The translations under genes were made by a program, and so were the position numbers. A DNA stretch of 64,000 nucleotides from Octopus vulgaris (taxonomy: Eukaryota): contig OX597826.1 in assembly GCA_951406725.2 (NCBI GenBank), forward strand, positions 57,970,001-58,034,000, written 5' to 3'. Below the pieces are notes generated by a model. That model made no database searches and had not been told where the DNA came from. It was given only the letters and a program-made list of their open reading frames with translations. Below, piece by piece: positions 25,588 through 52,314 of this stretch (its first letter is position 1; every line of letters begins with the position of its first letter).

Positions 25588-25616
<29 letters not shown>

Positions 25617-25624
25617 AACATTGT

Positions 25625-26014: not shown

Positions 26015-26060
26015 GACACCTGATGAATGCTGGAGGGAATATTAGCCGAAACGTTGTGTT
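26015..26060 (+). ncRNA. Minimal type I hammerhead ribozyme motif (separate family)
   Basis: GACAC-CTGATGA-at-GCTG...TAGC-c-GAAAC-GTT-GTGTT: intact core, stem I GACAC/GTGTT, stem II GCTG/TAGC. Confidence 0.65.
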
Positions 26061-28899
26061 AACAACAAATAAAATGAGGGCACATATCCGTCAAATGTAA
26101 ATAATATAATTGTTTTTCTCTTCACGAGATCAGGACTGTGTGTCGCTTTAAAAGTATAAATTGTAAACAAGAATGAGTGGCTGCTATATTTAGCCGGCGT
26201 TTGTCCTGTACCAACAAAGAGAAATTACCCAGAAATCATTGGTCTACAAGTATCGCTAAAGATAGAAAGGAGGCAATAGACTCCTTTGCTCACTGTATAC
26301 AGACACAGATCATGTGTCGGTAGCCAGCTGGAAAAGAAGCTTTCCTGGGGCTAAAAAGCAGCAACATCGTCCTATGCAGGACTGTCACTTTGCGTTGGCA
26401 AATAGACTTTACTACACACACACGCACAGTGGAAGCAATAATTAATTATTCATTTATATATTTCTTAAGATTAACCATTATAATATTTCGGTCATTAGTC
26501 CTCTATCACAGAAAAAAGAAAGAAGGGAAGGCATAGAGAGAATACGAAAAAGAAATAATTAGTGTATAAAAAGAAAATACAAAAAAAGCGGGGAAAGGAC
26601 ACACTCACACCGTAGTTCAGAAAACGTTTTGGCGTTGAAACCTCTGAACAATTGTGAGGTATATAACATTCTGTCACTACTCAGTGTTTCTCGTCCCGTG
26701 CGATGATCGTTCAGGTGACTGATTGCCGCTTTAAAGTATCCCACACGGGAAGAAGCTGAGTTTTGACAGAGTGAATCATCAGCTGTTTCCAAATAAATAA
26801 ACTATAATGTGTATTGAGTACTCTTTCCCTCGATTATAACCCCCAAACACACATCACACACACACACACATCATCAATTATTGCTCACGAGCATTTTTGA
26901 CTGAAAACGTCGTCAAGTGTCTGGATTTTCTACAAGACTTTTCTTTTAATTTTTTTTTTCTGCTTGTATCATCCATCATACGTGATTAGCCTCAATGATC
27001 CCAAAAGGAGAAAAGGAGGAAGTGAAAAATGTGGGGCGTCTGAAGTCTTCACGCCTTTCTACAGAGTGTTAGCAATGTGAAGTCAAAAGAAATTTCTTCC
27101 AACCAAAAATCAAAACAGTGTCGCCAACACATATTGCCCTCTAACTAACTTTCCTTAACATTCCTAATCTGTTGTTGATGTCTTACTTAAGGATATCATC
27201 AGTAGGGTTAAATGAACTGAAAAGTTTCCATTCTGGAATCAAAACCGTTATTAAAAAAGTAACAACCTAATAAGCGAAATTAAATAGTTTCAACTAGGAA
27301 TCGAAACACACATCATTAGCTCCATCCACAAAGCTGTATTTGTCCATAAAATTGACAAAGTAATGCAGTATCACAGAATATCGAAACCGAAGCAAGAACG
27401 TTGACTAACTTTGCTGAAAGCTTGACAAACTGCACTACGACATCCAAAACAATTTATTAGTTAATAATCAGTTTCTTTACTTTTCGTTAAGCGAGAAGGT
27501 GAGATTGATATATTGTTATTTGAATTGTATATTAGGTTATGCATTTAATCGACTTGAAATAGTGAGAAGTAACGTCTGTGAAAAATAAGGCTTTTAACTC
27601 TTAATGCTGAACGAAATAAGACTAGATTCAGTGTAAAAACGAAGTGGATTTAGTATATCTGACTATCAGTACTTCGATATTAAAATTAGATCCATTTAAA
27701 GCATTCAGGTGCAGTATATAGAGGAATTTACTTTATTCACTGGTCGCGTTTCAATTTATTTATCGGACGAAAAATAGAAGGTTACACGATATGGACATCC
27801 AGCATCTTATTTTGCACGAAGTACTTTTGTTCTACTCAACACCTTAGCAAGGGAGCTGAACTCAGGTTCTTAAAATGCTTCTCTGGTCTTAAGAATTATA
27901 TTTATAATCCATGCAAGAGAAACGAGGTAGTTGGAAACTGTGGAAGCACGTCGTATGCACTCTACTGGTGATTCCGTCACCCAATTTGTCATAACCAGCG
28001 TGACACTGCGACGAAGCTAGACCATCGAATCCCAGATACGATCCATTCGACGGACTGCAGCGTAGTTTCCAACTGCTTAAATTTTTTCGAGCGGAATGTA
28101 TCATATAACCTGGCCTTGTCCGTTACACAATGCCATACTGATTCTGTCCGAAGATTACGTTAAGAGTACAACTGTATGTGGAATGCTCGGTCACTTACAC
28201 ACACGTAATTCAATCAGTCGATAGTTCTGTTTTATCGAACGACTAAATGGAACGCTTACAACATCAAAATCGACGCGCGAGTCTATCAGTTTACAAGCGA
28301 AGAAATGTAACCCAGCTATCTGTTTCAATCGATTTCTGACATAGAAATAGTGCCGACAGAGGTAATGTCAAGTTCACGTATTAACAATCGGTACTTCCAA
28401 ACTGGGTATGTTGGAACTGGGTCGGTGCCGTTGCGTACTAGATAACTCTATTCTACTAGCGTACAAGACAAGCCTCTATTATTTTCTCTCTTTTTTTTTT
28501 TTTTCTCTTTTAACTGGAGGCGAGAAATATAGTCTTTTGTTGATAATGATGAGATATGAAAGAAGGACAAGTTAAGGGAGAGAGAGAGAGGTAGGAAGAG
28601 TCTGAAATACGGAACATTAGACAATGTGAAACGTCCGAATCAATACCTTAGCGATGTCGCTCATCATTGCAGAACAGTTATGGCTTATACCACCACCACC
28701 ACCACCACCACTACTACTACTACTATTACTACTACTACTACTACTACTACTAATAATAATAATAATAATAATTAATTCTTTTTATTGGCCACAAGGGCTG
28801 ACAAATATGATTGGAAAACATAAAGGGACAAAACAGGACGAAAGGTTACAAAAGGTTTTGTCCGTTTGTGAAAAAAACCCGAGTAAAAAGCAGTTTAAC

Positions 28900-28929
<30 letters not shown>

Positions 28930-28932
<3 letters not shown>

Positions 28933-29600
28933 CCTTTCTACTATAGGCACAAGGCCTGACATTTTGGGGGGAGGGAACCAGTCGATTACATCGACCCCAG
29001 TGCGTAACTGTTACTTAATTTATCGACCCCGAAAGGATGAAAGGTAAAAATCGACCAGGGTGGAATTTGAGCTAAGAACATAAAAAAAACAGACGAAATA
29101 CCGCCAAGCATTTTTTCCGGTGTGCTAACGTTTCTGCCTAGTACCTATTTTATCGATCTTGAAAGCTAAAAATAATAGTGATTTCAAATTCTGTTACGAG
29201 ACCAGAAATTTTGAGGGGAAGGGCACGAATATATCTACCCTAATACTTTACTAGTGCTTATCTTATCCACCCCGAAAGGACGAAAGGTAAAGTTGTCCTC
29301 GGCGGAATTTGAACACAGAGCATAATGTGTCGGAAGAAATACAGTTAAGCATTTTGTCACATGCGCTAACGATACTGCCAACTCGCAACTTTAACAAACA
29401 ATAGGCACAAGGGCTGAGATTTTTTGGAGGGAAGGGCAAGTGGATTATATCGACCCCAGTGCTCTACTGGTACTTTATTCTATCGACCACGAAAGAATGA
29501 AAGCAAAGTCGACCTCGGCGGAATTTGAACTCAGAACTGACGAATTATCGCTAAGAATTTTGTCCGGTGTGCTTAACGATTCTGCTAGCTCGTCATCACT
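28930..29600 (-). mobile_element. Cluster of three older family 2 SINEs in tandem
   Basis: Three successive inverse Meta-like domains near 29020, 29270 and 29480. Confidence 0.75.
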
Positions 29601-29639
29601 TCAAATAACAACAACGACAACAACAACAGCAACAATTTA

Positions 29640-30236
29640 TTTTTGCCCCAGGGAAGATGGATAATGAGACATTACAAGGACAAATTACAAAACGATAAGG
29701 GTTTTTACAGAGAAAATTATGCGGAAAACAACATTGTTGACACAAAATGGTCATCGACAGTTACCTGGGGCTAATCAGGGAACTTCATAGATATCAAATA
29801 ACTGTTACTGCTAAGGGTGAGTGCCCTCTACCCGCTGTGTCCTCCCATCTACAAGGAGATATTCAGAGCAAGTTCATTTGCTTGGGCCGTATAAGCCAAT
29901 TTTAATTTACCTTTCTGTACATATACTTAAAGAATAGCACCTTTCCCTCCGTTCTAAACTTTTTCCCTTCAAGTGATTATTTCAAGAAATTGATCATCAG
30001 GGACTATGCCGAAGAGGCAAGGGTGTATATGTCATCAGTCTTTCAATCACGACCATCACATTTCGCTTTCTCCATTACCATAGTTTTTTTTTCTGAGGGA
30101 TTTTTTTCCCGCCCCACCTCACTCTGTTTGGGACAGAAAAAAAAAAAACACCGCCAGCCCTTAGTGGCTAGGACTCGGTCGATAACTGTATCCATTTTAC
30201 ATGCAACAACAGCTGTTCAACGTAAACTCTACAGGT
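29640..30236 (-). mobile_element. Degraded non-LTR retrotransposon 3' fragment (Tx1/L1-like)
   Basis: Broken minus-strand frames (YVEQLLLHVKWIQLSTES; LMINFLK*SLEGKKFRTEGKVL) resemble Tx1-type ORF2 C-termini as I recall them; 3' end ...TTTGTCCTTGT...CCCTGGGGCAAAA resembles the Meta-SINE tail. Confidence 0.45.
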
Positions 30237-30298
30237 AATAATAACGCTTTTTAGTTACGGTAGAGTTTATATTTCCCCCACCTACACCATCACTGTCC

Positions 30299-30339
<41 letters not shown>

Positions 30340-30785
30340 AACCAATGCTAATTAATTTTCGCCAGAATCACAACTATGACAAAAGCTAATTCTTTCACTT
30401 ACCCCATTTTTATCTATTTATTTACACACCCATCCATCCATCCATCCATTCACTCGTGCTGCCATTTATACATATATCGATTTACCCCCATTTTAATCAA
30501 GAATCTATTACACCCATATTTCAACCTGTCAATCTGTATCACTTTATACACATACACACAAAGACACATCTCTCTATATAAATGTATGTGTTTATATATG
30601 TGTGTATATATATATAAATACTAGCCCACGTATTTCCACCCACAAGATGTATGTAGGTTTGTACGTATGTACTTACCTCATTTATATATCTCGTATATAT
30701 TTCCATCTTTATACATCTACCTGTATATTTCTCTCTCTGTTCCCTGCTATATATTCACCAAATCTTTCGTGATTATCAGCTGTCT

Positions 30786-31190
<405 letters not shown>

Positions 31191-31344
31191 GGTACGTACG
31201 TAGCATATCTTATATATCCCGCAAGTCATTCCATCCAGCCGTCCAGCCGTATCTATCTCTCCATCCATTCCACAAATCACATCTTTCTATCCATCCATCC
31301 ATCCATCGCTTCTAACCTCCCACACATAGCAATCTATCCATTGC

Positions 31345-31392
<48 letters not shown>

Positions 31393-31778
31393 CCCACGCT
31401 CCCCCCTACCCATCTAGCAGTTTTATGCATCCACCCAACCGCCTTTCCTCCCATATCCCCGAGGGACCCACCGAACGAACGAACGAACGAACATCTCACC
31501 TAAAACAACATTCGAAATGGCTGGGTTTTTTTAAGGAAAAACATTATTTACAATATATCAGTAGCTAATATCAGATAAGGGACTTGACGGAAAGAAAGAC
31601 ATACATACATAAAGAAAACTATCTTTAAAAAAATAGCAAAGGTTGGTAAGGAACGACATTAATGTGTATAAAAAGTGAAACAATGTGTATTCATGCAGCA
31701 ACTAAAATAAACAAACACACAGCTAAATAAAACGCCCCTCACACGCACATTCTTCCCAGACTTGCTATGTCTTGATAT

Positions 31779-32197
31779 TACTCTCTTTACTCTCTTTACT
31801 CTTTTACTTGTTTCAGTCATTTGACTGCAGCCATGCTGGAGCACCACCTTTTAGTCGAGCAAATCGACCCCGGGGCTTATTCTTTGTAAGCCCAGTACTT
31901 ATTCTATCGGTCTCTTTTGCCGAACCGCTAAGTGACAGGGACGTAAACACACCAGCATCGGTTGTCAAGCAATGCTAGGGGGGACAAACACAGACACACA
32001 AACACACACATACATATATATATATACATATATACGACAGGCTTCTTTCAGTTTCCGTCTACCAAATCCACTCACAAGGCATTGGTCGGCCCGGGGCTAT
32101 AGCAGAAGACACTTGCCCAAGATGCCACGCAGTGGGACTGAACCCGGAACCATGTGGTTGGTTAGCAAGCTACTTACCACACAGCCACTCCTGCGCC
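31779..32197 (-). mobile_element. SINE family 3 (tRNA head, CORE-like box, internal TA/TG microsatellite)
   Basis: GGAGTGGCTGTGTGG...GGGTTCAGTCCC head, CTTGGGCAAGT box, tail CCAGCATGGC...CAGTCAAATGACTGAAAC followed by short GTAAA(A)GA-type repeats. Confidence 0.9.
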
Positions 32198-32740
32198 TAT
32201 GGTTCATATTATTATATATAGTTGCCTTTGTAGTTGTAAGTTGCCTTTAGAGTAAGACTAACTTTGGTTTGTTTGGTAGCAGCAGTGCGTGTCTATTCAC
32301 TAGTTTCAAAATGGTTGGCCCAAACTTAACAGAATCAACGCTAGGCAAACCAAACCACACTAAGGAATACTTAAAGATGGGGATGTTAGTATCGTTGTAC
32401 GGTTTGGTTGGTTGTATAATATATTAAAAATCGATCGCTCTCTAAGAATGTGTGCATGTGTATGCGTGCATGTGTGTGTGTGTGTGAGTGAGAGAGAAAA
32501 AGAGGAAGAGAAAAAGATAAAGAAAGAGAGAGAGAAATGGATAAATAAACGCAGTAAGATTCATATATACATATGCAAGTTTATAAATATACACGCATAC
32601 ATACAAACATATATATATGGACATATGTAAATATACTCACGCATAGACATATCTATATATATCTATCCATTTATCTATCTCTAAATTTGTGTGTGTGTAC
32701 ATATATACATCTATATAAATATATACACACACAGCAATCA

Positions 32741-32813
<73 letters not shown>

Positions 32814-33120
32814 TGTATATTATGTATGTATATGTACACACACATACACACACCATGATTATCAACACATAGGTGTCGTCAGATGTGAGAGTGTCTAGGT
32901 GAAGGTAGGTAGTTTAGTGCATACAGTGTTGATCCTTTCGTGATGGTTTCGATTCCTGGCCGAGGTCTTACAACCCTGTATACAACAAGTAATTCAAAAC
33001 CTGAATATTATGGGACTTCAGTGTACGTAATATATACAATATATAAGCTTGTGCCCCAGCATAGCCGCAGCTCACGAGGTGAAACCAGTTAAAGAGATAT
33101 AAAATATTCATACAACGTAC

Positions 33121-33303
33121 ATGCATCATTGGCTGTGTGGTAAGAAGCTTGCTTTCCAATCACATGGTTTACGTTTCAGTCCTACTGCGGGGCACCTTGA
33201 GCAAGTGACTTCTACTATAAACTCTACTATAAAGATTTGTGAGTGTATTTAGTAGACGGAAACTGAAAGAAGCCCGTCGTGTATATAAATGCATACATAC
33301 ATT

Positions 33304-33375
<72 letters not shown>

Positions 33376-33560
33376 GTGTGTCTGTATTTCTCCCAATACC
33401 TTCCTTTGACAACCATAACTTAGCGGTTCGGCAAAAGTGACCGATAGAATAAGTACTAGGCTTACAAAGAATAAGTCCTGAGGTCGATTTGCTCGACTAA
33501 AGGCAGTACTCCAGCATGGTCACAGTCAAATGACTGAAATACGTAAAAGAATAAAAGAAT
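33121..33560 (+). mobile_element. SINE family 3
   Basis: Diverged full-length copy, inverted relative to 31779-32197. Confidence 0.8.
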
Positions 33561-33579
33561 ATGTGTAATCACTTTATAT

Positions 33580-34161
33580 AAGTATACACAATAAGATATA
33601 CATTTACATATATATAGGAACGTGTATATAATGTATGTATAAATATATCATATACAGATTATGTATATATATATATAATATTATATAGATACATACATAG
33701 AGATAGGTAGATATATACACACACACATACAAGTATATATATATATATATATATGCATAAATAAATGCATAGAAATGTAGGTATATATATCAAAATACTC
33801 CTAACCACATAAATGTAAGTGAAAATGTATGTAAATTACATATATACAGAGATAGATACAGATGTACATGCATGTATATATACGTATGTGTATATATATT
33901 TATAGATATGAATATCTATGCATCTATGTATATTTACGTGTATTTATGTATATATATATATATATTTACGTATATATGTGCTTGCAAAAATATATAGTAA
34001 TTTATATGGATATTTAAGTGTATGGTTCTATACACAAAACTATATGTAATATCTATCAATGTGTATATAGGTATGAGTATATATAAGAATCATATATATA
34101 TTTTTATATCCATATGTTTACTATATTGTAACATGTCAGATGTGTATACATATATGTAATA

Positions 34162-34194
<33 letters not shown>

Positions 34195-34433
34195 GTATGT
34201 GTGTGTGTGTGTGTGTGTATATGATACATATATGAAAAACATATGTAGTAATACGTAAACTATGGATTCAAACATACATATATGTAAAATACGTATACAC
34301 ATTCTTTGTATTTATATTACGTACTTAATATAATTATAAATAAATAAATATGTCTGTATATTCATTATATGTACGCGTTTATATTATAAATGCATTCATA
34401 TATTCATATATATATGAATATATATATACAGAT

Positions 34434-34467
<34 letters not shown>

Positions 34468-34502
34468 ATACAAATATATATATATACATATATACGTATA
34501 TG

Positions 34503-34536
<34 letters not shown>

Positions 34537-34712
34537 TACATAAAAATATATATATATATATATATATACATATATACATAAATATATATATATACATATA
34601 TACATAATATATATATATACATATATACATAAATATATATATATATACATATATACATAAATATATATATATACATATATACATAAATATATATATATAT
34701 ATACATATATAC

Positions 34713-34761
<49 letters not shown>

Positions 34762-35545
34762 AATACATATTTACACATATACATACATATATACATACAA
34801 ATATATATACATATATACATAAATATATATATATAGATATATACATAAATACATATACATATGTTCATAAATATATATATATGTACATATATATATAATT
34901 ATATACATATATATATATACATATATATATATACACATACATATATACAATATATATACACACATACATATATATAATATATATATGTATATACGCACAT
35001 ACATGTATGCTATGTATATACATTTATAAATATATATACACACACATATATACGTATATATATATGTATATCAAAGACGTATATATACATGTAAATAGTG
35101 TATATACATGTATATACAAAGTATACGTATATAAAACGTGTCTGGATTATACATACATCTAAATAGTATTAAGAATGTTCATGTATATATGCCACATGTG
35201 ATGTTTTTGACATGGTATACATGGTATACATGTAAACATATATGCTTTTGCACACACATAGACACACACTCACACACATACACAAATAAATGGGATATGC
35301 ATTTACACGATATGCCCGTAATATGAGTGTACATGTATGCATACTAACATATATATATATATATACATATATTTTATATGTGTATATATAGGTATACGTG
35401 TATATGTATGTATATATATGTATATACATATATTTTATGTGTATATATAGGTATTCGTGTATATGTATGTATATATACATATATATGTGTATGTATATAT
35501 ATACAAATATATATATGTATATATATATACAAATAGATATGTATG

Positions 35546-35583
<38 letters not shown>

Positions 35584-36187
35584 TGTATGTATATATGTAT
35601 ATATATATGTATATATATATATACAAATAGATATGTATGTATATACAAATAGATATGTATGTATATATATATATATATATGCATATATATATATATAATA
35701 TATGTATATATATATTATATATGCATATATATATAATATATGTATATATATAATATATGTATACACAAGCATATGTATATATGCACACACACACACACAC
35801 ATAATATCATTATGCTATGTTAAGCCTACGTGTATGTGTGTGTGTGTACGTGTGTTTACATGTGCGCGTGAGAGTGTATTCACCCTGCACGCTCATCTAT
35901 GTGAGTATTCCCGCGTGTGTGTGTGCGCGCGCACTGGTGTGGTACCGGTGCTGTTATAAAAGTCAACATTTAAATACTGTTTAATAGTTTCGGAACACAT
36001 GGTGCATGGAAGCGTGCGGTTTTCAGCAAACTAAGCACTCAGTATTACGTATGTTCCCATGTATGTATGCAACCGTATTTGTTCGCATTTACGTCTATGC
36101 GAACTGAAGACTTTATAATGCTGGATGTTATCAATGAGCATCCTAATGCATAACTATATACACAAATATATACACACATGTACTTTT

Positions 36188-36220
<33 letters not shown>

Positions 36221-36272
36221 CATTCACACATACATACCCATATTTAAATGTGTGCATATGTGTGTATAAAAC

Positions 36273-36312
<40 letters not shown>

Positions 36313-36452
36313 TGAGTATATATACTTATATAAATATACATATATTAATATATATACATATATAAATATGTATATATGAATATGTATACGTATATGGATA
36401 TACATATGTATATGTATATATATATATATATACGTATATGGATATACATATG

Positions 36453-36490
<38 letters not shown>

Positions 36491-37031
36491 AATACATGTA
36501 TATATGAATTTATGTATGTATACATACACATATGAATATATATATATATATATATATATGAATATATGTATATATATAGATATGTGTATATATATATGGG
36601 TATATGTATATATAGATATGTGTGCATATATATCTATAAGTATATGTATATATATGTATACATATATATATATGTGTATATCTATACATGTATATATGCA
36701 TATATATATATATATATATATACATATATAGTGTATATATATATATGTATATATATGTGCATATACATATATATATATGTTATATATATATGTGTATATA
36801 TATATATATATATTTGTATATGTATATATATACATATATATTCATAGATATTTATATGCATACATATATATGTATATACATACAAATACATACATATATA
36901 TATATATATATCCATACATATATATAAATACATACATACATACACATACATACACACATACACACATACATATATATATATATATATACATACATATACT
37001 TACATACATACATATACATACGTACATATAC

Positions 37032-37062
<31 letters not shown>

Positions 37063-37390
37063 TGTATGTATGTATGTATGGACAGCTGCTCCCATGATAG
37101 AAATGCACATTGCTCAAAAGCGCCCTAGTCGTGGACCTCGTGGTACTGTATTGTTCAGAACTACAGTGACCAATGTTTACTTCGCTCCTAAGACATAATT
37201 TAAAGGAATTTGTTTGCTATTTCTAGCAATTCGTAAGACAATTTTGAGGCTTTCATTCTAGCTCGTGCGACTGTTGACTGTATATGTACGTTTATACACA
37301 CACACATACATACACATATATATGTACATAAATACACACACACACATACACATGTACATATATATATATACATAGACACACGCATATACC

Positions 37391-37485
<95 letters not shown>
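33580..37485. repeat. Multi-kb degenerate TA/CA/TATG microsatellite field ending in (GATA)n
   Basis: Directly visible; source of many spurious IY-rich ORFs. Confidence 0.9.
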
Positions 37486-38414
37486 GCGTATATAATATTG
37501 TATATATTTTACTCTCTCATTCACTGAGATATGTACACGGTCAGCAAATATATATGAAATGATATCGTCTGTTAGTGATAATACATCGTTTCTTGTTTAT
37601 CACTAATGGCGTATGTATGTGTGCATATGCGTATTCTTGTTAAGCGCTAGGAAAGATCTGATTGGACAGGTGTATAATTTATCATCGTCAGGTCTTTTAT
37701 CTCTTTATGGCACCAATGACCTGTAAGTGTCTTTCCATTTTTCGTAAGGTAGGGTGCGATGTGAGAGGCATCTGACTGCTATTTCCAGCAAGGCTAGCTA
37801 CAGCGCACAATTTTTTTTTTGTTCGTTAGAAAAATCTGTGCTTGATATAATACAGTTAAGCATGCAAGTTTTTGATGCTACAAGGCATGAAAGTATATTT
37901 GTGACCACCACCAAAGAAAATTGTTAGATCATAAATACTGACATACGCACAAGTTATAGGTATGTGTGAAAGCGTGCATGTGTGTGTTGGGGTATTTTAA
38001 AGACGGTAAGGACGATTTGAGGGTGATATGGCACCTATTTCCTGTAGGTTGAACGGCGATTTGCAGGATCTCCTGTTCGACCGTATACGTTGTTTTGTTA
38101 ATAGATAGAAGTCAGATCATTAGTTCAATGGATTCGATATGACCCAGAGGTCACTAATGAATGGTCACTCAGGGCGACACGACCAGACAGTCTGAAGATG
38201 GTGAAAAGTGTGTGAGGTGACACAGAGATGCAAGTTTTTCTACATCTTTCTCTCTCTCTCACTGTCATACACTCATACACACGGGCACACCACTCGTGTG
38301 TATAGGTGTGTACGTGTATGTACGTGTTCGTAAGTGTACATATACGCATGTACACATAAGATCATTACAGACGTAAAAATCTCTCTCTCTCTCTCTGTAC
38401 GTTCATGTTTGAAG

Positions 38415-38467
<53 letters not shown>

Positions 38468-38666
38468 GAAGGTTTGAAAATGCAATTTTAAAAGATGTTT
38501 ACCTTTTAAAATTGCATTTTCAAACCTTCTTTCATTCATATATAATTCCACTCGTGCAGTACCTTACAACTTCACTTTGTTATTTTTATATATAAAATCC
38601 TTAACATCCTTAAAAATGTTTCAGCCCGAAGGCCGCGGCCATGCTGGGGCACCACACACACATATA

Positions 38667-38709
<43 letters not shown>

Positions 38710-38723
38710 AACAAAGTTATTTT

Positions 38724-38783
<60 letters not shown>

Positions 38784-39623
38784 GTATAATAATATATATA
38801 CATAGTTGCATATGTGTGTGTATATAGATACATGCATACATAAATACATAAATGATATGATCGTGTGAATACTTGCATATATACGTTATCACATCATGAA
38901 ATTATACGATATATATAAAGTATGACTCTATCTCTCTCTATATATATACATAATATATATAGACATTATATACATGCATACGTACATATAAGTGTGTGTG
39001 TGTACATGTGTTCACACGTATATATTTACAGCTAGGTTTACTCACATGTACATACACACTTATGTGTAAGATGTGTAATATGTACACAATTCTGTACAAT
39101 AAGATAAATATATACACATAACTTGACCATTTATGCGTATATGTACATTGAGATATTTATATATCTATATTTATTGACGACCATAGACACATTTACGAAC
39201 AGCTATTCGAATACAATTATATATACCCTTTTATACACGCACACATAAAGTCCATGTGTACCCACGTACACTATATTATATATGTGCGTATGTATATTCA
39301 CTAAAATTTTCCCGCATATATATCTACTAAGTTGCGTAGAAACACAAACATACACACACACACACACACTTTGTTTACAGATAATACAAACATACATGTG
39401 TATGTGTGCGTGTATATATATATATATAAAACATAACACACATGCACGTATTTATGATGGCTATTACGTACATACATACGTGGGTGCGTGTATACATATA
39501 TACATGTGTGTGCGTGCGTACTATATATGTATAACACATGTACACACACACACAAACACATATATTCACGTATTCTTACAGAGGCATATAGAGAAGTATA
39601 TATAAATGCATAGACATTTATTT

Positions 39624-39674
<51 letters not shown>

Positions 39675-39711
39675 TGTATACATGTATGTATAAATTATAT
39701 GTATGTATACG

Positions 39712-39750
<39 letters not shown>

Positions 39751-39847
39751 ATATATACATATGTATATATGTATACTTAGATATATAAATATCTATGTAT
39801 ACATATATACATATTTAGGTGTATATATAGGTATTTATATGTATGTG

Positions 39848-39900
<53 letters not shown>

Positions 39901-40594
39901 GCAGGGGTAGCTGTGCAGTGAAGAAGCTTGCTTCTGAGCCATTTGGTCAAGTGTTCGGTCCCCTTTGTGTGACATTTTGTGCAAGTGTCTTTTAGTGTAG
40001 TCTCAGTTCGACAAAAACCTTCAAATGTAAAACCGAAAGAAGCACATTGTGTGTGTATGTATGTGTGTCTCTGTGTGTGTGTGTGCGAATGTATGTGTAT
40101 GTGTTGTATATGTTCCTCATCACCGTTCTAATTAATATACACCCTTGTAATATAGAAGTTCGACACAGAAAGTGATAGAATAAGTACCAAACTTTTATGG
40201 GGGTCGATTTGTTCGACTATACTCTTCAAGGCGGTTCCCCAGGATGGCCGCAATGAAAATTGGCTGATACAAACATGTAGAACATATAAGATGTATACGT
40301 GCATGCGTTTTTTTTTTTTTGTGTATATTTCATAAGTTTTTTTTATTTATATTTTTTCTTCCTTTTCTCTGGCAGGAACACGTAATTCTGTCAAATCGAT
40401 AATGAAAATAAGAAGAAGGAGAATTTTGAGACATGATTTACAATTAAATTTACTCTAAAGAGGGATTTCTCTGTATCTTCCGCTGAAGACAACACAACAC
40501 GGTTTTAATCTGCGTGTGATACTGCTAGGAACACGAATTCATGTCTAGGGAACATATGTGCCATAAAATATGTCTTTACTACGTAACGTAAAAG

Positions 40595-40916
40595 ACTCGT
40601 GGCTTAGCGGTGAGACTCTTGATCTTAACGTCGTGAGTTCGGTTCACGGCGGCGCGTTGTAGTTTTCAGTAAGACACTTTTTTTTCACGTGTGTCCAGTC
40701 CACTCCACTCAGCTGGCAAACATAAGTAGTACCTATATTTCGAAGGGTCAGTCTTATAATAATATTCTGCGTCACGCTGAATCTCTCTCAGAAACTACGT
40801 CACGGTTACGTGTATCTGGAGTGCTCAGCTACTTACACGTTGAATTTCCCGAACAGGCTGTTCCGTTGATCGGATCAACTGAATGAAACACTCGTCGTCA
40901 TAACCGACGGAGTGCC
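40595..40916 (+). mobile_element. Older SINE with tail A
   Basis: Degenerate tRNA head plus GGAGTGCTCAGCTACTTACACGTT...CCGACGGAGTGC tail. Confidence 0.7.
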
Positions 40917-41135
40917 AATATACATACAAAGCCTGCATCTATTTGCACGTGGTTTTTCGTGTTAGCTATCTTTGTATCTAAGCATATTATCGCTCTAAAC
41001 CTGAATTTAATTTCTTATAGTTGTGAAATATGTGAGAGTTAACATATATATTTGTATCTGAACATAAAAATCACGATACGCTAGTATACACACACACACA
41101 TATATATATATATATATGTATCTATTTGTATATAT

Positions 41136-41187
<52 letters not shown>

Positions 41188-41203
41188 CTATTTGTAACTA
41201 TTT

Positions 41204-41247
<44 letters not shown>

Positions 41248-41399
41248 TTGTAATTATTTCTCTCTCTATCTATATATATATTTGTAACTATTTGTATATA
41301 TATATATATATATACATCTATTTGTATATGCATATATATATATTATATATATATGTATGTATTTGTGTGTGTGTATGTATTTATATATTCATATATATG

Positions 41400-41439
<40 letters not shown>

Positions 41440-41937
41440 TGAATAGATATACATACATTCATAAATACATAAATACGCACACATACATACATAGATCTAT
41501 AAGTATCTCTACGTACACGTACACACACACACACACACACACTAACACACAACGAAGAAAGTCGCTTGCTTCAAGAAGCATTTACAAATTCATTGGGCTC
41601 GCGATTATGATGTATACATAATTTTGTGAAGCTCTTTACAAAAATGTATATACTTGTACATGGTGAGTCTTTCAACTAACGTGCTGTTTAAGCTATGTTC
41701 CTTACAAGTCTTGCATATTTATCCTATTTTAAAATACTTCGCAACTGGTTTCACAAACAAAGAAGTTAGTACATATATGTAGAAAAATATTTATATACAC
41801 ATAATAGCCAAATAACTCTACTGGACCAAAACGTCGAAGGTAAGTTGTCAAGGCCCAGTACGTTTGTGTTTGTGTGGTGTAGACGTGTACATCTGCATAC
41901 ATACATGCATACATACATACATACATACATACATACA

Positions 41938-41969
<32 letters not shown>

Positions 41970-42033
41970 CAGGCATAAATACATATAACAAATACACGCA
42001 CACACGCATATATATGTATATATATATATATAT

Positions 42034-42125
42034 CCTGCTCGCTTAGCCAGCGGGGTGGCGTCATTCGAAGGCTAAAACAATGCGAACGCATTGTGACCAG
42101 CGATGTGTAACAACATCTGGTCGGT

Positions 42126-42133
<8 letters not shown>
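42034..42133 (+). mobile_element. Family 1 SINE tail B fragment
   Basis: Matches 8152-8265; lies between TA runs. Confidence 0.8.
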
Positions 42134-42180
<47 letters not shown>

Positions 42181-42182
<2 letters not shown>

Positions 42183-42347
42183 TGCAGGCATCATGGCTGT
42201 ATGGTAAGAAGCTCGCTTCCCACCCACATGGTTCTGGGTTCAGTCCCACTGCGTGGCACCATGGGCAAGCGTCTTCTACTATAGCTTCGGGTCGATCAAA
42301 CCCTTGTGAGTGGATTTGGTAGGCGGAAACTGGAAGAAGCCTGTCGT
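42181..42347 (+). mobile_element. SINE family 3, 5' half
   Basis: Head and CORE-like box, ending at the internal microsatellite. Confidence 0.8.
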
Positions 42348-43097
42348 ATGTATATATTTGTGTGTGTATGTATGTATGCATGTGTGTGTTTATAGGTATG
42401 TTTGTATGTATGTATGTATGTAAGGGTACGTTGCTTTAGAAATAGGGATTTTTTTTCATTCGAATCCCAGAGGATATCTCCGTTGCTAATCTGTTTCCAC
42501 TCTTCACAAAACCACTTATAAACAAGCAGGTGACTCGGAGTACCGTCAGAATGGGGCTTCAGTTTCAAATAATTGACTAGCTACGTATATATATCAGGCT
42601 AGATTATACATTAGTATTTCAAGATGCAATACCATTTTGATGATATTTTGAAAATGGTCTTGTGGCGTTCATACGTTCTCCTTCATCGAACAATCCGTCA
42701 CACATGAACGTTTTTCAAAAAGCTCATACTAAGAATCGAAACTAGCACGTGGATTCGCTTTCAATAAACAATATCGATTTTTATAGATAGAGGCACAAGG
42801 CCATCTAAACTGTAAATGGAAGCGAAAAATTGGATAGCGTATGGAAATCATCGGTTTTCCCCCACCAAATTTCCACTTTGCGACGTGAAATCCTGCTGTA
42901 AATCTACTGCGATGGATTTTCAGAGTGGTTAGTGCGTCGAACAAAACGACTCGTGGTATTTGTTTTACGGTCTTTTAAGTTTCCAGTTCAAATTCTTCAG
43001 AAATGAAGTTTGCTTTTCATCGTTCCGGTGTCGGTAAAATAAAGTATTCGTCAAGCATTTGTGTAGGTTCAATACTACCTTAATCCATCAATTACCC

Positions 43098-43328
43098 ATT
43101 TCTTTATTACCCACAAGGGGCTAAACATAGAGGGGACAAAAAAAGACAGGCATAGGTATTAAGTCGATTACATCGACCCACCCCAGTGTGTAACTGGTAC
43201 TTAATTTATCAACTCCGAAAGGATGAAAGGCAAAGTCGACCTCGGCGGAATTTGAACTCAGAACGTAACGGCAGACGAAATACGGCTACGCATTTCGCCC
43301 AGCGTGCTAACGTTTCGGCCAGCTCGCC
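43098..43328 (-). mobile_element. SINE family 2 (MetaSINE-like)
   Basis: Full-length inverse copy; CAATTACC flanks both sides. Confidence 0.85.
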
Positions 43329-43476
43329 AATTACCGCTAGGTTCGACTTTGCCTTTCATCTTTCATCGATAAAATAAGTACCAGTTGAGCACTGGAGTCG
43401 ATGTCATTCTATTAACCCCACTCCCACAGAACTTGCTGACCTTGTGCCAAAATTTGAAACCAATATTACTCTAAAG

Positions 43477-43677
43477 CAGTGCTTTTCAAACTTTTTGCGG
43501 GAGCGGAACCCCAAGAAAACATTCCACTGGCTCGAGGAACCCCTGTGCAATAATTTAATAGTCTTATGCACACATATCTGCACAGGAGACTTAAAAATTA
43601 CTGCCGATTTTAGCAGTTTTGTAACTTCTTGCGGAACCCCTGGACTGTACTGGCAGAACCCTGGTTGAAAACTACTG
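43477..43677. mobile_element. hAT (Charlie-like) MITE, 201 bp
   Basis: CAGTGCTTTTCAA...TTGAAAACTACTG termini; perfect 8-bp TSD CTCTAAAG at 43469-43476 and 43678-43685. Confidence 0.9.
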
Positions 43678-46494
43678 CTCTAAAGCATCCTAGATGCGAG
43701 TCGGAATTATATTAGAAAGACTTAAGACAAAAAAAAAAAAGAAGAAAAACCACAGGTGAAATTCGAACCTAAGTGTAAGTAGACTCATGATCACAATGAC
43801 CACGTTGCGGAGAGAGATAGCAAATTTCTTTGCGATACATAGTAGCCTATAGTGTAACAACCGTGTCTCATCAACTATTACTTATTGTCACAGCATGCAC
43901 TAAAAAGTTTTTAAAAATGAAAGTACGAAATGAAGCATAAGACATCTTAAATAATGCTTGTTGAAATGGTAGTGGTGGTGACAGGTAGGGTGAAGATGGT
44001 TCATTTTCTTTTTCATTTTGTGAGGGTCAATGAATAAGGGAAACTGTCTCAGCATTTTTACCAAATATAAGGTCTTTTTATTTTCTATTATTAATGTCAG
44101 GATTCATTTACGTAATTTTCTTACGCAACCAAAGATTATATGGAAAATTGATGTTTAGTACTAAGTGATTGCTGAGTAGATGTGTGAAGAAGACAGGATG
44201 GTCGCGACATTCCATTCTAGTTGTGGCCATCCCGTATTCTATTCAGACAACGAATCTAGGACAACATCACCCAATGGGGGAAGAAGGAATCCGGAGATGG
44301 AGGAGGTTGCAAAAAAATTTTTATTTATATTTTTTTATTTCCGTTTTATGAAACACGAGAATGCTATCAGAAAATGAAGGTGGCGAGGTGGGGGGGTGAC
44401 TACCACCTTCCTTTCTCATGAGGAATAGGAATCCGAGGGATAACTATACCAAAACTGCTCCATCCAATGCAACCTTTTCTAAGTTGATAAGGTGACGTGT
44501 AAGAGAAATTTAGCTGCTATTTCTAGCAGATCGATCGGTCGCGTAGAGGCTAACTCGATGGTTCAGGACGAGATATTATTAGTGTGTAGGGTGGGATATA
44601 ATCAACTGCATCGAACTCAGTAAATAATTGCTAATTATTTTATCGATAGAATACTGGAAGACTGTGGAGATATCTGGCCTACTAGTTAGTTTTGATCGTA
44701 AGATTGTGGTTTCGATTCCTGGACGGGGCAACGCGTTGTGTTCTTGAGCAAAACACTTCATTTCACGTTGCTCCCATCCTCTCAGCTGGCAAAAATGAGT
44801 AATACTGCAACTGACCAGCTATAGAAACTGAGAGACTAGCCCTTAATGAGTCCATAGGGCTCGAGAAGGATTTTTTTTCTTTCTTTTTTTTTTTTACCTA
44901 GGAAGAATGAAAATCAGAGTTGGCCTTAGAGGACAAAAATTAAGCACTTGAAAGACATCAATATTAGTATAATAATTATAATAATTAATTTCTTATTTGT
45001 AACAAATTTTAGCGAGAGGAAACACTCGTTCGTATCGATCCCAGTATTTGACAGGAAGCTATTTTATCGACAATCGAAAGTATGAGATAAAAAAAAAAAA
45101 ATTGACCCCGGCGGGATTTGAACTCAGAATAAAAGAGGATGTAATTATACATTCTTTTTCTATGCTGCGACGCTCTGTCTGTTTTCCCATCGACCAACCA
45201 TAATGGTAATAAAAATGTTCTGACCAAATAATTTAGATTTTCATTATAGTTTTTAATTATCATTCTTTTTTAAAAACTTCGCCGATAGATCGACTAATAA
45301 TGCACGTATTCTTCCGAGATTGAAAAATTGAGTACCAGTAATAAACGGTGGTCAGTTTACTAGACCATACTCCGCTCTTACAAATCCCGGTCTTGTGGCT
45401 AGTCAAAAGAAATCGATAGTTTCTAGCGTGGGTCATAAAAGAAGCCTCGGATTTACTAATAAAAAGGCAAAGGAAAGGTGGAGAGGAATGGCTATAAAAT
45501 CGATAAGTCCACGGTCCTCAGTTAGAATAAGGTAAACATGAGGTGAAGAGACGTCACCTGGGAATCGAAACTACTGTCTCAAAACTTACCACTGCATCAC
45601 AATTTCAAACCCACGAGAGATCCTCGTCGTGATTGCTCGAAACAGTAGCCAATTCTTCCTCAAATCATATCTTACAGTCTTAAAGTACATATTGGGATAA
45701 TGTAGTCAAGGAAGACCCGACATAAATCAATATTGAAGTCTCATATATCCCTAAAAAAGACGGCATGGTCATAGTTGGGAGGCCTTTCATTAACCACCCC
45801 AAATTTAGATTCTTCCATGACGCATGTGAAGAAATGTTTTTGCATTGACCTTTTACAGAAAAGTTTTGTGCAAAATATTGTGCCTGTCATGACTTTACTT
45901 CAAAATATTATCAATAGTAAAGAAGGGGAGATATTCAGGGACACTTGCGTGTTTATTTTATCATCTGAGCCCAAAAATGAAAAAAAAAAATTAAAAAAAG
46001 AAATCGTTCTGAACTTGAAGCGATTCGAACCTTCAACAGTAAAGTTTCGTACGCGGGATACTCTAAGACATCCCGTTTAACGTTTTGGCTATCACGGCTA
46101 TTCCTATTGATCGGTTTAGCTATGTAAATTGACATTCATAAATTCTTCGATAAATACACAGAAATGGTCGGATTGAATTGGTATTTATATTTCATACGGG
46201 TATATATTAATGTCACAAATATGAAGTGACTCCAAATAAGATTCGAAACCTGGTTGCAAATGCACTTTACTAATAATGCTTACACCTACATCCACAGAGC
46301 CACGACACCATCCCCAATAATAATGGTTTCTTAAACAAACACGAACTCGTGGACTCGTATTTGCGAAGTACGAAAAACGAGATAGTATGACGCTGATGTC
46401 CTCCTCAATGACACTCACCAGCACATTGTGTGAAGAATTTAATTTGTAAATTATGGTCTAGGAATTTACTCAACCGGAAGTTACATACATACAT

Positions 46495-46659
46495 GGAGTG
46501 GATGTGTGGTAAGTAGCTTGCTAACCAACCACATGGTCCCGGGTTCAGTCCCACTGCGTGGCATCTTGGGCAAGTCTTCTACTATATAGCCTCGGGCCGA
46601 CCAAAGCCTTGTGAGTGGATTTGGTAGACGGAAACTGAAAAGAAGCCCGTCGTATATAT

Positions 46660-46695
<36 letters not shown>

Positions 46696-46910
46696 TTGTG
46701 TGTCTGCTGTGTTTGTCCCCCTAGCATTGCTTGACAACCGATGCTGGTGTGTTTACGTCCCCGTCACTTAGCGGTTCGGCAAAAAGAGACCGATAGAATA
46801 AGTACTGAGCTTACAAAGAGTAAGTACCGGGGTCGATTTGCTCGACTAAAGGCGGTGCTCCAGCATGGCCGCAGTCAAAATGACTGAAACAAGTAAAAGA
46901 GTAAAAGAGT
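46495..46910 (+). mobile_element. SINE family 3
   Basis: Full-length copy. Confidence 0.9.
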
Positions 46911-49169
46911 ATGTGTGTGTTTGTGTGTGTGTGTGTTCTCAGTACATAAAGTTTAAGTCATCGAGCCCCAAGACCCGGCAATGGGCAAGCCTTTTTTTCG
47001 TAAAGCGGTCTGCATGAGCCATGGCTCATCATCAGGCGGCCCACACTACTTGAAAAGTTCAAGATAAATTTTCGTTGGCTTGCCATTCAGAAAAATCCTG
47101 CGGGTCACAGTTTGGCCACGATCACCTTAGACGGAAGGATGAAACACGAATGTTGAAAAATAAAATCTGGGACAGGGATAAAGCCAAAAATTTGTAGGTG
47201 GGGAGACCGGGATAGGGACTCGATGGATGATTCGAGAAAATGTTACTGTGACATTCGGAAGAAACCTTAAGAACCAACGAGAAATGTCATTGCACGATCG
47301 CGTGACCTGCTAGACATAACAGACAAACCTTCCTTAAATCACACACTATCTTCTTAAAGAAGAAGGACACAATTGAAATGAACAATCTAATGTCTGATAT
47401 ACAAAACGATATACAAAAGATGGTCGTGACTGGAACGCCTTTGCTCACATGTCTGTCTACCAATCAGATATGAATTGAGGTTAAACAGTAATTATACATA
47501 TATGCCATCGACCTCAGAGGCGAAAGGACTATAAAATCTAGAAAGGCAAGAACGCCACAATTTCGTAGAGGAATGATAGATTTTGTCCGATGATTCTTCC
47601 CTGAAATATTACTGGTACTTAATTTATCGTCCACCCTAACTTGCTTTCAGCATCAGAGGAAGGGAGAGATGGAGGCAAAAATCGACCCTGGCGGGATTTG
47701 ACCCGGAAAGTCGATATAATTAAACACTATAAAGAAGATGGTTCGGTGCCCTACTTCACCCAACTTCTACTTCACCGCCTTTTCAACAATACATATACCT
47801 ATACCGTTGACTACAAGTCCACAAACTGTGTCTCGTAAAGGGAGTACATACGCCAATTGAACCGGTTCATCCTTCAATATATAGCTGGTACTTATCGATC
47901 CCAAAGAAACGAAAGGCAAAACTGACTTAGTAGTATATAACAATAATGTCCGAACCACAGTTTCAGTAACAATCTAAAACTAATTCTTTCTATATGAGAT
48001 ACAAGGAGGCTTAAGTTTTTAGGGAGCAAGTTAGACAATACCATTGGCACCCATTAATTAACCGGTACTTTATTTTATCGACAATAGGGAGATGAAAAGC
48101 AAAGTTGGTTTCGACTGGATTTGCTCGGTACAAGGTCAAATTTAGGTGAAAGTGAAGATGGACAAATTGCCATGTTTGATAAAATAAAGATTTCCAACTT
48201 TTAAAACTTATCAAGCAGCATGGTGAAGAACGAGGTTATAGTAGAAGACACTTGCCCAAGGTGCCACGCAGTGGGACTTGAACCCGGAACCATGTGGTTG
48301 GTAAGCAAGCTACTTACCACACAGCCACTCCTGCGAATTTTATTTTTCCCTCTTTTTTTGTGTGTGTGTGTGTAAAAACTTATAAGTTTCTCGGAAAAAA
48401 CAATAAAGAAATCAGAAACAGCATAAAACAACTTCACAAAAGTATGTAATTGCAATGTCTGTTTTGACTTCTAGAAAATTTTGAGGTATTTTGTCAGCTT
48501 GAGAGCAACCAGGATGGCCGATTATATCGAACTCCCAAAAGTTTCACTGTTACTTCATTTCATTGACCTCCGGAAGGATAAAAGGCAAAGTCGATCCCGG
48601 TAGGATTTGAACTCAGAGAATAAAGACCCTTGACAAATACCAAAGATCCTTGACAAAAACCAAAAGACTTTTTGCCTAACGATCTAGAAATCGTTTGACA
48701 AAAATATCCTTAGTAATAATACTTGTTTCCAATACAAACACAAGATTTGGAATTTGGGAGAGGGTTGCCGGCCGATTACATCGACCCTCGTGCACAATGC
48801 TATTCATTTTATCGTCTCCGAAGAATGAAAGGCGAAGTAAACCTCGGTGGTATTTGAACTCGGAACCTAAGGCCGCTTTAGCAATAATAATATCTAATAA
48901 TTACACTCTGGTATATACATAAATACATACATTACATACAAACACACATTCACACATACATGCATATACACATATGCCTACACAACATACACGCATACAC
49001 ACACTAATACGTCGACACATACACACGTATACATACACAAATACGTACATATATACATATACACGTGCATACATACAAACATACACACACATACATACAT
49101 ATGCACATACATACATACATACACACGCATATACACACATATATACAGACATATACATATGTTTTGGCA

Positions 49170-49599
49170 TACTCTCTCTCTCTTTTACTTTTTACTTGTT
49201 TCAGTCATTTGACTGCGGCCATGCTGGAGCACCACCTTTAATCGAGCAACTCGACCCCGGGTCCTTATTCTTTATAAGCCCAGTACTTATTCTATCGGTC
49301 TCTTTTGCCGAACCGCTAAGTGACGGGGACATAAACACACCAGCATCGGTTGTCAAGCAATGCTAGGGACACAAACACAGACACAGAAACACACACGCAC
49401 ATATATATATATTTATATATATACATATATACGACGGGCTTCTTTTCAGTTTCCGTCTACCAAATCCATCCACTCACAAGGCTTTGGTCGGCCCGGGGTT
49501 ATAGCAGAAGACACTTTGCTCAAGGTGCCACGCAGTGGGACTTGAACCCGAAACCATGTGGTTGGTAAGCAAGCTACTTACCACACAGCCACTCCTGCG
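49170..49599 (-). mobile_element. SINE family 3
   Basis: Full-length inverse copy about 250 bp inside the ephrin intron. Confidence 0.9.
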
Positions 49600-49852
49600 A
49601 ATTTTATTTTTCCCCTCTTTTTTTTTTGTGTGTGTGTAAAAACTTATAAGTTTCTCGGAAAAAAACAAATAAAGAGAAGACAGAAACAGCATAAACAACT
49701 TCACAACATATATACATCATTATATACATATATTATATACATCATTATATATACATCCCGCAAGATGTGAAAAAAAGCAAAATAAAACATTCGTAATTCA
49801 TATTTATAGATACATAAAATATATATATGTACAATATATACACACTACTTAC

Positions 49853-50073
49853 ATTGTGTTTGTCTTGTTCCAATAAAGTGTATGCTTAATCCAGTTAGGT
49901 TTGGCATCCGTGAAAATGTTTCCTATCCATGTATTGTAGAAAATGAGAAGAATCCAAGGGAGACCGAGTGACCACATTCGGTTACAATTTGAACGATAAT
50001 GATAGTAATGATTATTATTATTATTATTATTATTGTGATTATTATTATTACTATCAGACACCGGCATTTTCAT
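49853..50073 (-). CDS. Efn: Ephrin-family ligand, first coding exon (leader, signal peptide, start of receptor-binding domain)
   Basis: Translates MKMPVSDS-N4HN8-HYYHYRSNCNR-MWSLGLPWILLIFYNTWIGNIFTDA-KPNWIKHTLYWNKTNT(I/M). HTLYWNKTN matches the ephrin N-terminal motif (ephrin-A1 DRHTVFWNSSNPK) including the N-x-S/T sequon. The frame ends at AT|GTAAGT (GT at 49852-49851), a phase-2 donor six codons after the Trp, as in vertebrate EFNA1/EFNB1 intron 1. A or B class cannot be determined from this exon. Confidence 0.85.
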
Positions 50074-52314
50074 AATGCTTCTTTATTTTTTTGGTGTATA
50101 TATATATATATGTATATATATGTATTCCTTCTGTAATTTCTTTTACTGAGTAGTAATAATAATTAATAATAATAATTTTGATCCTGGTTAAAAAGAATTT
50201 TGTTGTGCTTGTATGTATATAAAGATGTATGTATATATATATATATATATTATATATATACTCCTTTTATGTAGTTTGATGCTGTTTGTATATCTTTCTC
50301 TCTCTCTCCCCTCTCACATAAACACTTTCTCTCTTTTACCCTTCGTTTTCAAGCGTACGTGTGTATATAATATATACACATATATACTCATACGTAGCCT
50401 ACATGAGTGTATATATATGTATATATAGGTGCGTATATATATATGTATGTATATATATAAGTTGAATAGGGGTGATGATAATGTTGTTGCTTTTTTTTTT
50501 ACTTCACTAAAGTTGGTATGTTCGTGTGTGTATGTATATTATTATATAAAGCTATATATATATATTTATAAATATATATATATATGAATATTTGTATATA
50601 AATGTAATGCGTGTGTGTAAAATTATTTGTATATATATATATTTGTATATATATATATATATATGTGTGTGTGTATAGGTATATCCTTCAAAGTCGTTAT
50701 CAGCTCCTTGTTAATAAGAACTTGTGGTAATTGTTTTCCAGAAATTGTTTTAAGTGAAATTATTACAACTTGTTTTCTTGGTTACGTTTAGATTCCTGGG
50801 AGGAGATGGAGACCGGAGATTGTGGTGGTGATTGTTGCTATATATTTTTCCTTTTTCGACAACGGTGTCGTCGTCTCTCCTTCTCTCTCTCTCGTCGTCG
50901 TCGTTGTTGTTTCTACTTTTCTTTTTCTCTCACACACACACACCACAAACTGCAAGAAAAGAAAAAAGAAGAAAAAAGAATACACAGAGAGAAAAAAAAT
51001 TTGTTTGATATGTGTCTAATATTAGTTTTTCCTTGTTTCTTCTCGAAAAAATTTTTCTCTTCTTTTAAAACTTAACAGTTAAAAAAAAACACAGACAACA
51101 TTGAAAAAAAACTGTCGTCTGCGTTAGGTTAAAAATTTTCAGAGAACGACGACTTTTAGTTAAAAGCAAGACTGATAGAGAGAGAGGGGGGAGGAGAGAG
51201 TGAGAGAGAGAGAACTGCGTGGTTATGTACTCCAGCGACACACATACATAGATTAACATACACACACACACACACACACACATCGCAATATATCTATGTA
51301 TACGTATACGACTGACACGCGTGCGCATACACACTCACACACCCACATAAATATATACACACACACATATACATATATATATATATATATATTTATATAA
51401 AGATAGACGTATACATAGGACACACTTACAGATATACAAACCCTCACCGCCTTCTGTCTCGCTCTCGCTTTTTATTCTCTCTTACTTTCCCTCCTTCCTT
51501 TTCTTACTTTCTTTTTCTCCTCTTCTCTCGTCCATTGAACTATTTAGCAACTCTCTCTCTCTCTCTCTTTCTATCTCCTTTTCTCTCTCTTTCCACTTAA
51601 CTATTTATATACTTTCTTTCTCTCTTACCTCTACTTAACCGTTTACTCACTTTCTTTCTCTCTTCCGCCTTTTACCCTCTATTTGTCTCCTTTCCCCTCT
51701 TTTTCTCTTTGTCACCTTTATTATACTTGTGTACGTGCGCACTCCTATACATATACATCCTTTTCTTTTTCTCCCTCTCTATTACTTAATGTTAGTCTTC
51801 CTTTTTCTTTCTGACTGACCCTTTTCAATCACTCTCTTTATCATTCATACTTATTTCATATAATTACACCGTTATCCTTTCTTTCTCACTCCTCTCTCTC
51901 TCACCCACTTTCTATTTATCTGGCCTTCTCTCTCTCTTTCACACTCTCTCTCTCTCACTCTGTCTTGCGCAGTCTGTTCTCCCTCTCTTCTTCCTTTCCT
52001 ATTCTTTTTATGCTTCTTCCTGCCCCCCTTTCCCCAGTCTATACCTATCGCTCTTTCTCTTTTCCTCTCTTTCAGTCTATCAATCTGCTGCAACAGTCCT
52101 TTCCACTCCCCCTCTCTCAGATTCATTTACTCTCTCTCTGTCTCTTCTTTTATCTATACTCTCTCTTTCACTTTTCCGTTGTCTGACTATTTTTCACTTT
52201 CTATCTCGTTCTCACTATCTCTAGATACATTTGTTTATCTCTTATTACTTTCGCTCTTCTCTATATATATTTCCTTCTCTTCTCTTATCTTCACCACACT
52301 GTCTCCTCCCACAC

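Follow-up and report, generated by a model that had tools for sequence, protein, structure and literature searches.

Clustered protocadherins set variable first exons in front of constant exons. In these genes, and in the IgLON genes with their 1a/1b promoters, promoter choice sets the N-terminus of a surface protein, as it would in the octopus ephrin gene reported here, which differs in having only two first exons, each contributing fewer than 15 residues to the mature domain. Ratchet points accompanied by cryptic RS-exons have been described in introns of the Drosophila genes kuz, Bx and Ubx (PMC8605326, PMC6110457; partial texts), and junctions from an upstream 5' splice site into AG|GT are treated as direct evidence of recursive splicing (PMC6110457, partial text). 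Ratchet sites are enriched in insects and sea urchin, and no mollusc is among the organisms sampled in Table 2 of that survey (PMC2773006, partial text). Gene size in cephalopods has expanded much as in vertebrates (PMC10081198), and the term "recursive" is absent from the portion of that article at hand; given this expansion, the splicing of giant introns in cephalopods is a question worth asking. The literature searched, a body of text outside which most subscription journals and supplements lie, yielded no account of molluscan recursive splicing and none of an ephrin gene with two first exons. Neither ephrins nor alternative first exons nor ratchet points are new in themselves; new here is the RNA junction into an octopus ratchet-type site.

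The window is a stretch of 64,000 nucleotides (G000:C13:57970001-58034000) in the 2.8-Gb genome of Octopus vulgaris. Its exon 1B is very probably the distal first coding exon of an ephrin gene, spliced over a 1.40-Mb intron that is likely removed stepwise at nine AG|GTAAGTA ratchet points. As in Drosophila, a tandem acceptor|donor lies in a long intron and a junction leads from the upstream donor into AG|GT; the second donor found behind six of the octopus sites also resembles the cryptic RS-exon layout of the fly (PMC8605326, partial text). Unlike the fly examples, the gene is a mollusc's, and one 1.40-Mb intron holds nine sites, 60-263 kb apart, all reading GTAAGTA. Such sites number 0.64 per 100 kb in the octopus intron; the published densities are 2.2 for fly, 0.54 for sea urchin and 0.12 for human, a rough comparison because these values come from another scoring scheme (PMC2773006, partial text).

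The coding part of exon 1B (49853..50073, minus strand, 221 nt, phase 2) starts with the ATG at 50073 and runs through 73 codons plus AT down to 49853, followed by GTAAGTAG, with the 5' splice donor GTAAGTA at 49846..49852 (-). Two in-frame ATGs, at 50073 and 50067, lie within 50065..50073 (-), and the second coincides with the start of the cuttlefish-type protein P0014; a third in-frame ATG is found at 49977, where P0014 has Leu. The leader contains an AAT microsatellite (50011..50049, -) encoding poly-Asn, which is far shorter in P0014, and a hydrophobic core at residues 35-45 (49939..49971, -), likely part of a signal peptide that would be cleaved. Residues 63-67 (49873..49887, -) correspond to the strand with which the receptor-binding domain begins in a model of P0014. 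They are followed by the motif W68-x3-N72-x-split codon, within which N69-K70-T71 (49861..49869, -) forms a sequon that may be glycosylated and that corresponds to the sequon N-A-S in exon 1A, the other first coding exon described below.

The preliminary description had drawn on a 74-aa open reading frame, which is indeed in the list of frames (49849..50073, -), and had proposed that its final ATG-TAA is a splice donor, AT|GTAAGT; the last Met-stop does overlap the donor, and contigs splice at 49853. Motif spacing, sequon and phase 2 are also as described there. The donor is real, yet read-through occurs in RNA-type contigs as well (an unspliced contig of run X2 and a 37-nt contig of run X1), and therefore the 74-aa frame is more than an artefact of reading the DNA. 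The exon had further been called the first exon; it is an alternative first coding exon and not the sole one, since exon 1A exists too.

A tight pattern combining motif and donor had five matches in the 2.8-Gb genome, compared with three when the pattern was reversed as a control. Exon 1B and the first exon annotated for ephrin were both among the five, and they share contig and strand. A profile built from 81 ephrin segments was run over both strands of 1.86 Mb, where the 1,213 candidates of the minus strand included exon 1B with a score of 21.3 and exon 1A with 26.4; the next-best scores were 5.2 on the minus strand and 9.1 among 1,180 candidates on the plus strand. The idea that many first exons form an array, as in protocadherins, was rejected, as only two exons score in the 1.86 Mb. 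The exon 1B peptide by itself had no ephrin match in Pfam or the PDB, and as a protein query against longer targets it gave no candidate in a search so weak that the cluster member P0014 was missed too.

Searching the genome with PF00812 gave at least 37 matches at E values up to 10, two of them over the cut-off. Both lie on the minus strand of C13, about 1.4 Mb downstream of the window exon, and represent ephrin exons 2 and 3. Exon 2 opens with T followed by TTT, so that the split codon becomes Ile, followed by Phe; this fits the expectation of a downstream exon beginning with one base and a Phe codon. Contigs from four sequencing runs (X1, X2, X7 and X17), none of them registered as RNA and all assumed to be so, were placed on 49600-50380, where they give no coverage above 49994 and are uninformative there. 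Contigs of X1, X7 and X17 (three studies, two species labels) part from the window sequence precisely at 49853, and their 30 overhanging letters equal the first 30 bases of exon 2, a match unique to that place; the splice predicted at 49853 was thus found in three of the four runs. X2 yielded an unspliced contig only, reading through to 49666, and the 37-nt X1 contig that enters GTAAGTA has a depth of 55.7 compared with 55.3 for the spliced contig. We regard it as practically certain that exon 1B is real and spliced to ephrin exon 2.

The intron between exon 1B and exon 2 measures 1,402,923 nt (G000:C13:58019852..56616930) with no N in the span, and its first 49.9 kb occupy window positions 1..49852 (-). 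Outside the window, exon 1A lies at C13 56937319..56937165 (-) and exons 2-6 at C13 56616929..56584299 (-). Exon 1A is thereby placed inside the 1B intron, 320 kb above exon 2 and 1,082,688 nt below exon 1B. Joined to exons 2-6 it encodes 310 aa, identical letter for letter to the public protein P0008; the computed join of exon 1B to exons 2-6 is an open frame of 332 aa. Both exons end in AT in phase 2, use the same acceptor and have their own start codon. They are a pair of alternative first coding exons of the octopus ephrin, presumably served by a distal promoter for 1B and an internal promoter for 1A. Acceptor-like sites lie above both ATGs; that of exon 1B is 877 nt above its ATG, and exon 1B may therefore not be the first transcribed exon. 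A candidate 5'UTR intron of 480 nt (50950..51429, -) is suggested by sequence features, with GTAAGT at 51429 and a pyrimidine tract plus AG at 50950; four upstream ATGs lie between it and the exon 1B ATG.

One short interspersed repeat has copies at window positions 49360-49600, 31970-32250, 46545-46730, 60540-61135 and 61840-62130, which account for many spurious open reading frames of the window, and dense trinucleotide repeats with a strong GC skew occupy 55300-56750, 5-7 kb upstream of exon 1B. A LINE copy inside the intron (L087:5681-8796, -) is co-oriented with the ephrin gene and has frames for an endonuclease (490 aa) and a reverse transcriptase (575 aa). Nested genes were sought among long open reading frames and rejected: of 42 long complex frames, seven were LINE reverse transcriptase or endonuclease, two that overlap each other gave weak matches only, none with a stretch above threshold, and 33 gave nothing. 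The 400 kb upstream (G000:C13:58034001-58434000) held LINE pieces only and no long open reading frame with a cellular-gene Pfam match; by this search of long frames, exon 1B may border a gene desert.

At the protein level, exons 2 and 3 exceed the PF00812 cut-off in the genome, and P0014, which includes the 1B exon, covers profile positions 5-140 with 124 bits, in agreement with the ephrin domain predicted for the joined protein. Against a profile of 146 other ephrins, the octopus join scores 218.6 bits versus 198.5 without exon 1. A structure model was computed for P0014 (not for the octopus join) from 117 sequences, a nine-sequence version being poor (pLDDT 43.6). Its pLDDT is 90-98 across the ephrin domain (residues 41-180); the exon-encoded residues 45-49 form the first strand (pLDDT 90) and align to the start of crystallised ephrin-B2, and Foldseek matched the model to 1iko (E 1e-15, rmsd 2.1). 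The four conserved ephrin cysteines are present in the alignment columns. The model has a helix at residues 22-35, in the likely signal-peptide region; the 1B leader is long and rich in Trp and Asn, with a Kyte-Doolittle 11-mer maximum of 2.12 compared with 2.01 for 1A. Behind the domain come a stalk rich in Thr and a hydrophobic C-terminus that is followed at once by the stop, a GPI-type layout; the transmembrane helix and cytoplasmic tail with PDZ motif of class-B ephrins were not found in the octopus protein. By alignment with ephrin-B2, what we take to be the main Eph-binding loop would sit in the shared exon 3, and for that reason both forms probably have similar receptor preferences. The octopus protein is like other non-vertebrate ephrins that combine a class-B-type binding domain with a GPI anchor, the anchor being described for molluscs and nematodes (PMC6993872, partial text), in its PF00812 domain closest to ephrin-B2, its four cysteines and its hydrophobic tail; its difference lies in the two alternative N-terminal exons, each of which provides the first strand together with a probable signal peptide. 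The main text of that report nowhere uses the word "exon".

A search with exon 3 brought up ephrins of Octopus and Argonauta with an N-terminus other than 1B. The five Octopus proteins of the cluster comprise three that begin with 1A and two with unrelated N-termini; 1B is missing from all five and from the Argonauta record. P0010, P0011 and P0012 have unrelated N-termini glued to exon 2 and lack the W-N motif; these are likely mis-predictions owing to the giant intron. In the EFNB cluster of Sepia pharaonis, P0014 carries 1B and P0013 carries 1A, and the last 253 residues of the two proteins are identical. P0014 shares 35 of 54 aligned residues with octopus exon 1B and P0013 shares 37 of 53 with 1A, compared with a mutual match of 1A and 1B over six residues only. 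There is little doubt that 1B is a conserved alternative start in coleoids.

Ten further clusters comprise five with two N-termini that switch at this junction (oyster, abalone, chiton, scallop and scaly-foot snail, as RefSeq X1/X2 isoforms), one of a single type and four singletons; these non-cephalopod isoforms are database gene models compared as proteins. As in cephalopods, they combine two N-termini with one body and switch before Phe. Their 1A type is clearly homologous to cephalopod 1A, signal peptide included. With cephalopod 1B, by contrast, their second N-termini can be aligned over the W-N motif only, and a tree does not unite the two in a supported clade; neither alignment nor tree shows homology here, and it is from the layout alone that we infer a common origin of the second N-termini across molluscs. 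The signal-peptide region of 1A is strongly conserved from chiton to octopus (P0008, P0013, P0164, P0178, P0180, P0182 and P0183), which is unusual for a signal peptide and suggests, at the sequence level, a role beyond secretion. Three members of the oyster cluster (P0165, P0167 and P0170) are named myotrophin, have neighbouring accession numbers and include one of 320 aa; they possibly represent an adjacent gene or a fused model.

The intron contains nine sites with a pyrimidine tract and YAG|GTAAGTA on the strand of the gene (starts at C13 57801928, 57659017, 57565429, 57416523, 57257075, 57147975, 57028642, 56765946 and 56677065, sites 1-9, minus strand) and none on the antisense strand. 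All nine read GTAAGTA after AG, the same seven bases as the exon 1B donor. GTAAGT follows nine of 1,805 acceptor-like sense sites, where 0.3-0.45 would be expected (P about 1e-9), and none of 1,170 antisense ones, acceptor-like sites being in themselves commoner on the sense strand; the same scan of 412 kb upstream gave 0 of 347 and 0 of 341 on the two strands. The pyrimidine filter was chosen after site 1 had been seen; the strand excess holds at cut-offs of 12-19 pyrimidines out of 20, from 10:1 down to 5:0, and disappears without the filter (14 versus 10 for YAG|GTAAGT, 56 versus 72 for YAG|GTRAG). A pattern for ratchet sites run genome-wide was uninformative, because it had two matches versus two in the control and caught none of the nine sites.

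The nine sites divide the intron into ten segments, 60-263 kb in length, the longest of which holds exon 1A, and two sites fall within the 1A intron. Their spacing is more even than random (CV 0.42, P 0.004, post hoc). Copies of one repeat were rejected as their source, the flanks being single-copy within the 1.86 Mb. A second GT[AG]AG follows within about 100 nt at six sites, compared with a background of 13% (P 3e-4), and is missing at the other three; branch-point motifs occur at five of the nine under a loose pattern run without a control. A weaker tenth acceptor|GTAAGT with 14 of 20 pyrimidines lies at G000:C13:57028946 (-), 304 nt before site 7.

Site 1 is joined to exon 1B in one contig. 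This 391-nt contig of X1 (depth 4.3) follows exon 1B, continues for seven bases into GTAAGTA and then diverges; 30 of its about 360 unplaced letters are visible, and this overhang has a single genome match, 218 kb into the intron, directly behind the long pyrimidine tract and TAG|GTAAGTA of site 1, with another GTAAGT 35 nt further on. The simplest reading is that exon 1B was spliced to the AG of site 1, with the donor regenerated. Were the donor at 49846 instead, the divergent letters would have to be preceded by an AG, which is not the case. The junction was found at one of the nine sites, in one contig of one of the four runs, the RNA nature of which is assumed, and the contigs listed include none that leads to sites 2-9. 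Nor was a join of a site to exon 2, a lariat or sawtooth coverage seen among these contigs, which give a flat depth.

Three other explanations were weighed. Because exon 1B and site 1 share GTAAGTA, a template switch by reverse transcriptase is conceivable; the contig would then be an artefact at the shared bases, and the nine sites might function without RNA evidence. The 7-nt microhomology, the single contig and its low depth speak for such an artefact. From the way de Bruijn assembly works, however, words across a junction must come from reads, so that seven overlapping bases would not by themselves link the parts. Moreover, the intron holds 147 other sense GTAAGTA, nine of them acceptor-like, and the match is the first acceptor-like one and the 29th from the donor; within this intron, a random switch would reach an acceptor-like site in about 6% of cases and this particular site in less than 1%. 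We therefore consider a template switch quite improbable. Slightly less remote, though still improbable, is that the site-1 join belongs to a mature isoform, poison or terminal, which leads to a dead end and damps ephrin output, the productive mRNA arising from a single 1.4-Mb splice. The site-1 join and the read-through into GTAAGTA both read Met-stop (ATG-TAA), and as all such RNA does so, a truncated product is conceivable; the second donor 35 nt behind site 1 and the deep read-through contigs in X1 and X2 also fit a dead end, which nevertheless leaves nine near-identical, evenly spread, strand-specific, donor-regenerating sites unexplained.

The distance itself comes from one assembly and no read spans it, which would allow for trans-splicing of 1B to exon 2 or for a true distance shorter than assembled. 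Yet the span contains no N, the nine sites and exon 1A follow one another in order on one strand, and the RNA join to the site 218 kb downstream is colinear, all of which makes trans-splicing or misassembly very improbable. Recursive removal of the intron is the reading that we hold to be highly probable.

In our overall reading of the locus, a distal promoter would drive 1B and an internal promoter 1A. Each splice to a site would recreate the donor AT|GTAAGTA, so that ten segments of 60-263 kb could be excised in turn, and the last two sites would serve 1A transcripts as well. Short cryptic exons behind the sites would be skipped, and a stalled product would read ATG-TAA and stop. Differences between the two proteins would be confined to the signal peptide, the first beta-strand and the context of the glycan site, and they would have the main Eph-binding loop, the Thr-rich stalk and the GPI-type tail in common; for this reason, exon choice likely affects the place, time and amount of ephrin production more than the choice of receptor. 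Transcription proceeds at 1-3 kb per minute, at which speed the 1.44-Mb form would take an estimated 8-24 hours and the 0.35-Mb form 2-6. A role of the two starts in timing or patterning is our hypothesis.

As the Octopus gene models seen lack 1B, the true length of the gene is four times the annotated one, and the distal promoter would lie 1.08 Mb from the annotated start. The locus offers nine exact sites and a primer-testable intermediate for the study of giant-intron splicing. In the octopus optic lobe, an ephrin gradient opposes Eph (PMC9815951, partial text), and the two starts might divide this ephrin pattern. More tentatively, and at somewhat less than an even chance, cephalopods may independently process megabase neuronal introns by a fly-like, regular ratchet ladder with an extended AG|GTAAGTA code, seen here for the first time at the RNA level in a mollusc, and the ephrin gene may depend on this ladder to retain an ancient molluscan two-promoter switch that has two timed or patterned outputs. 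If this is true, transcription of the distal form would last many hours longer, and one ephrin gene would provide two outputs where vertebrates use paralogues.
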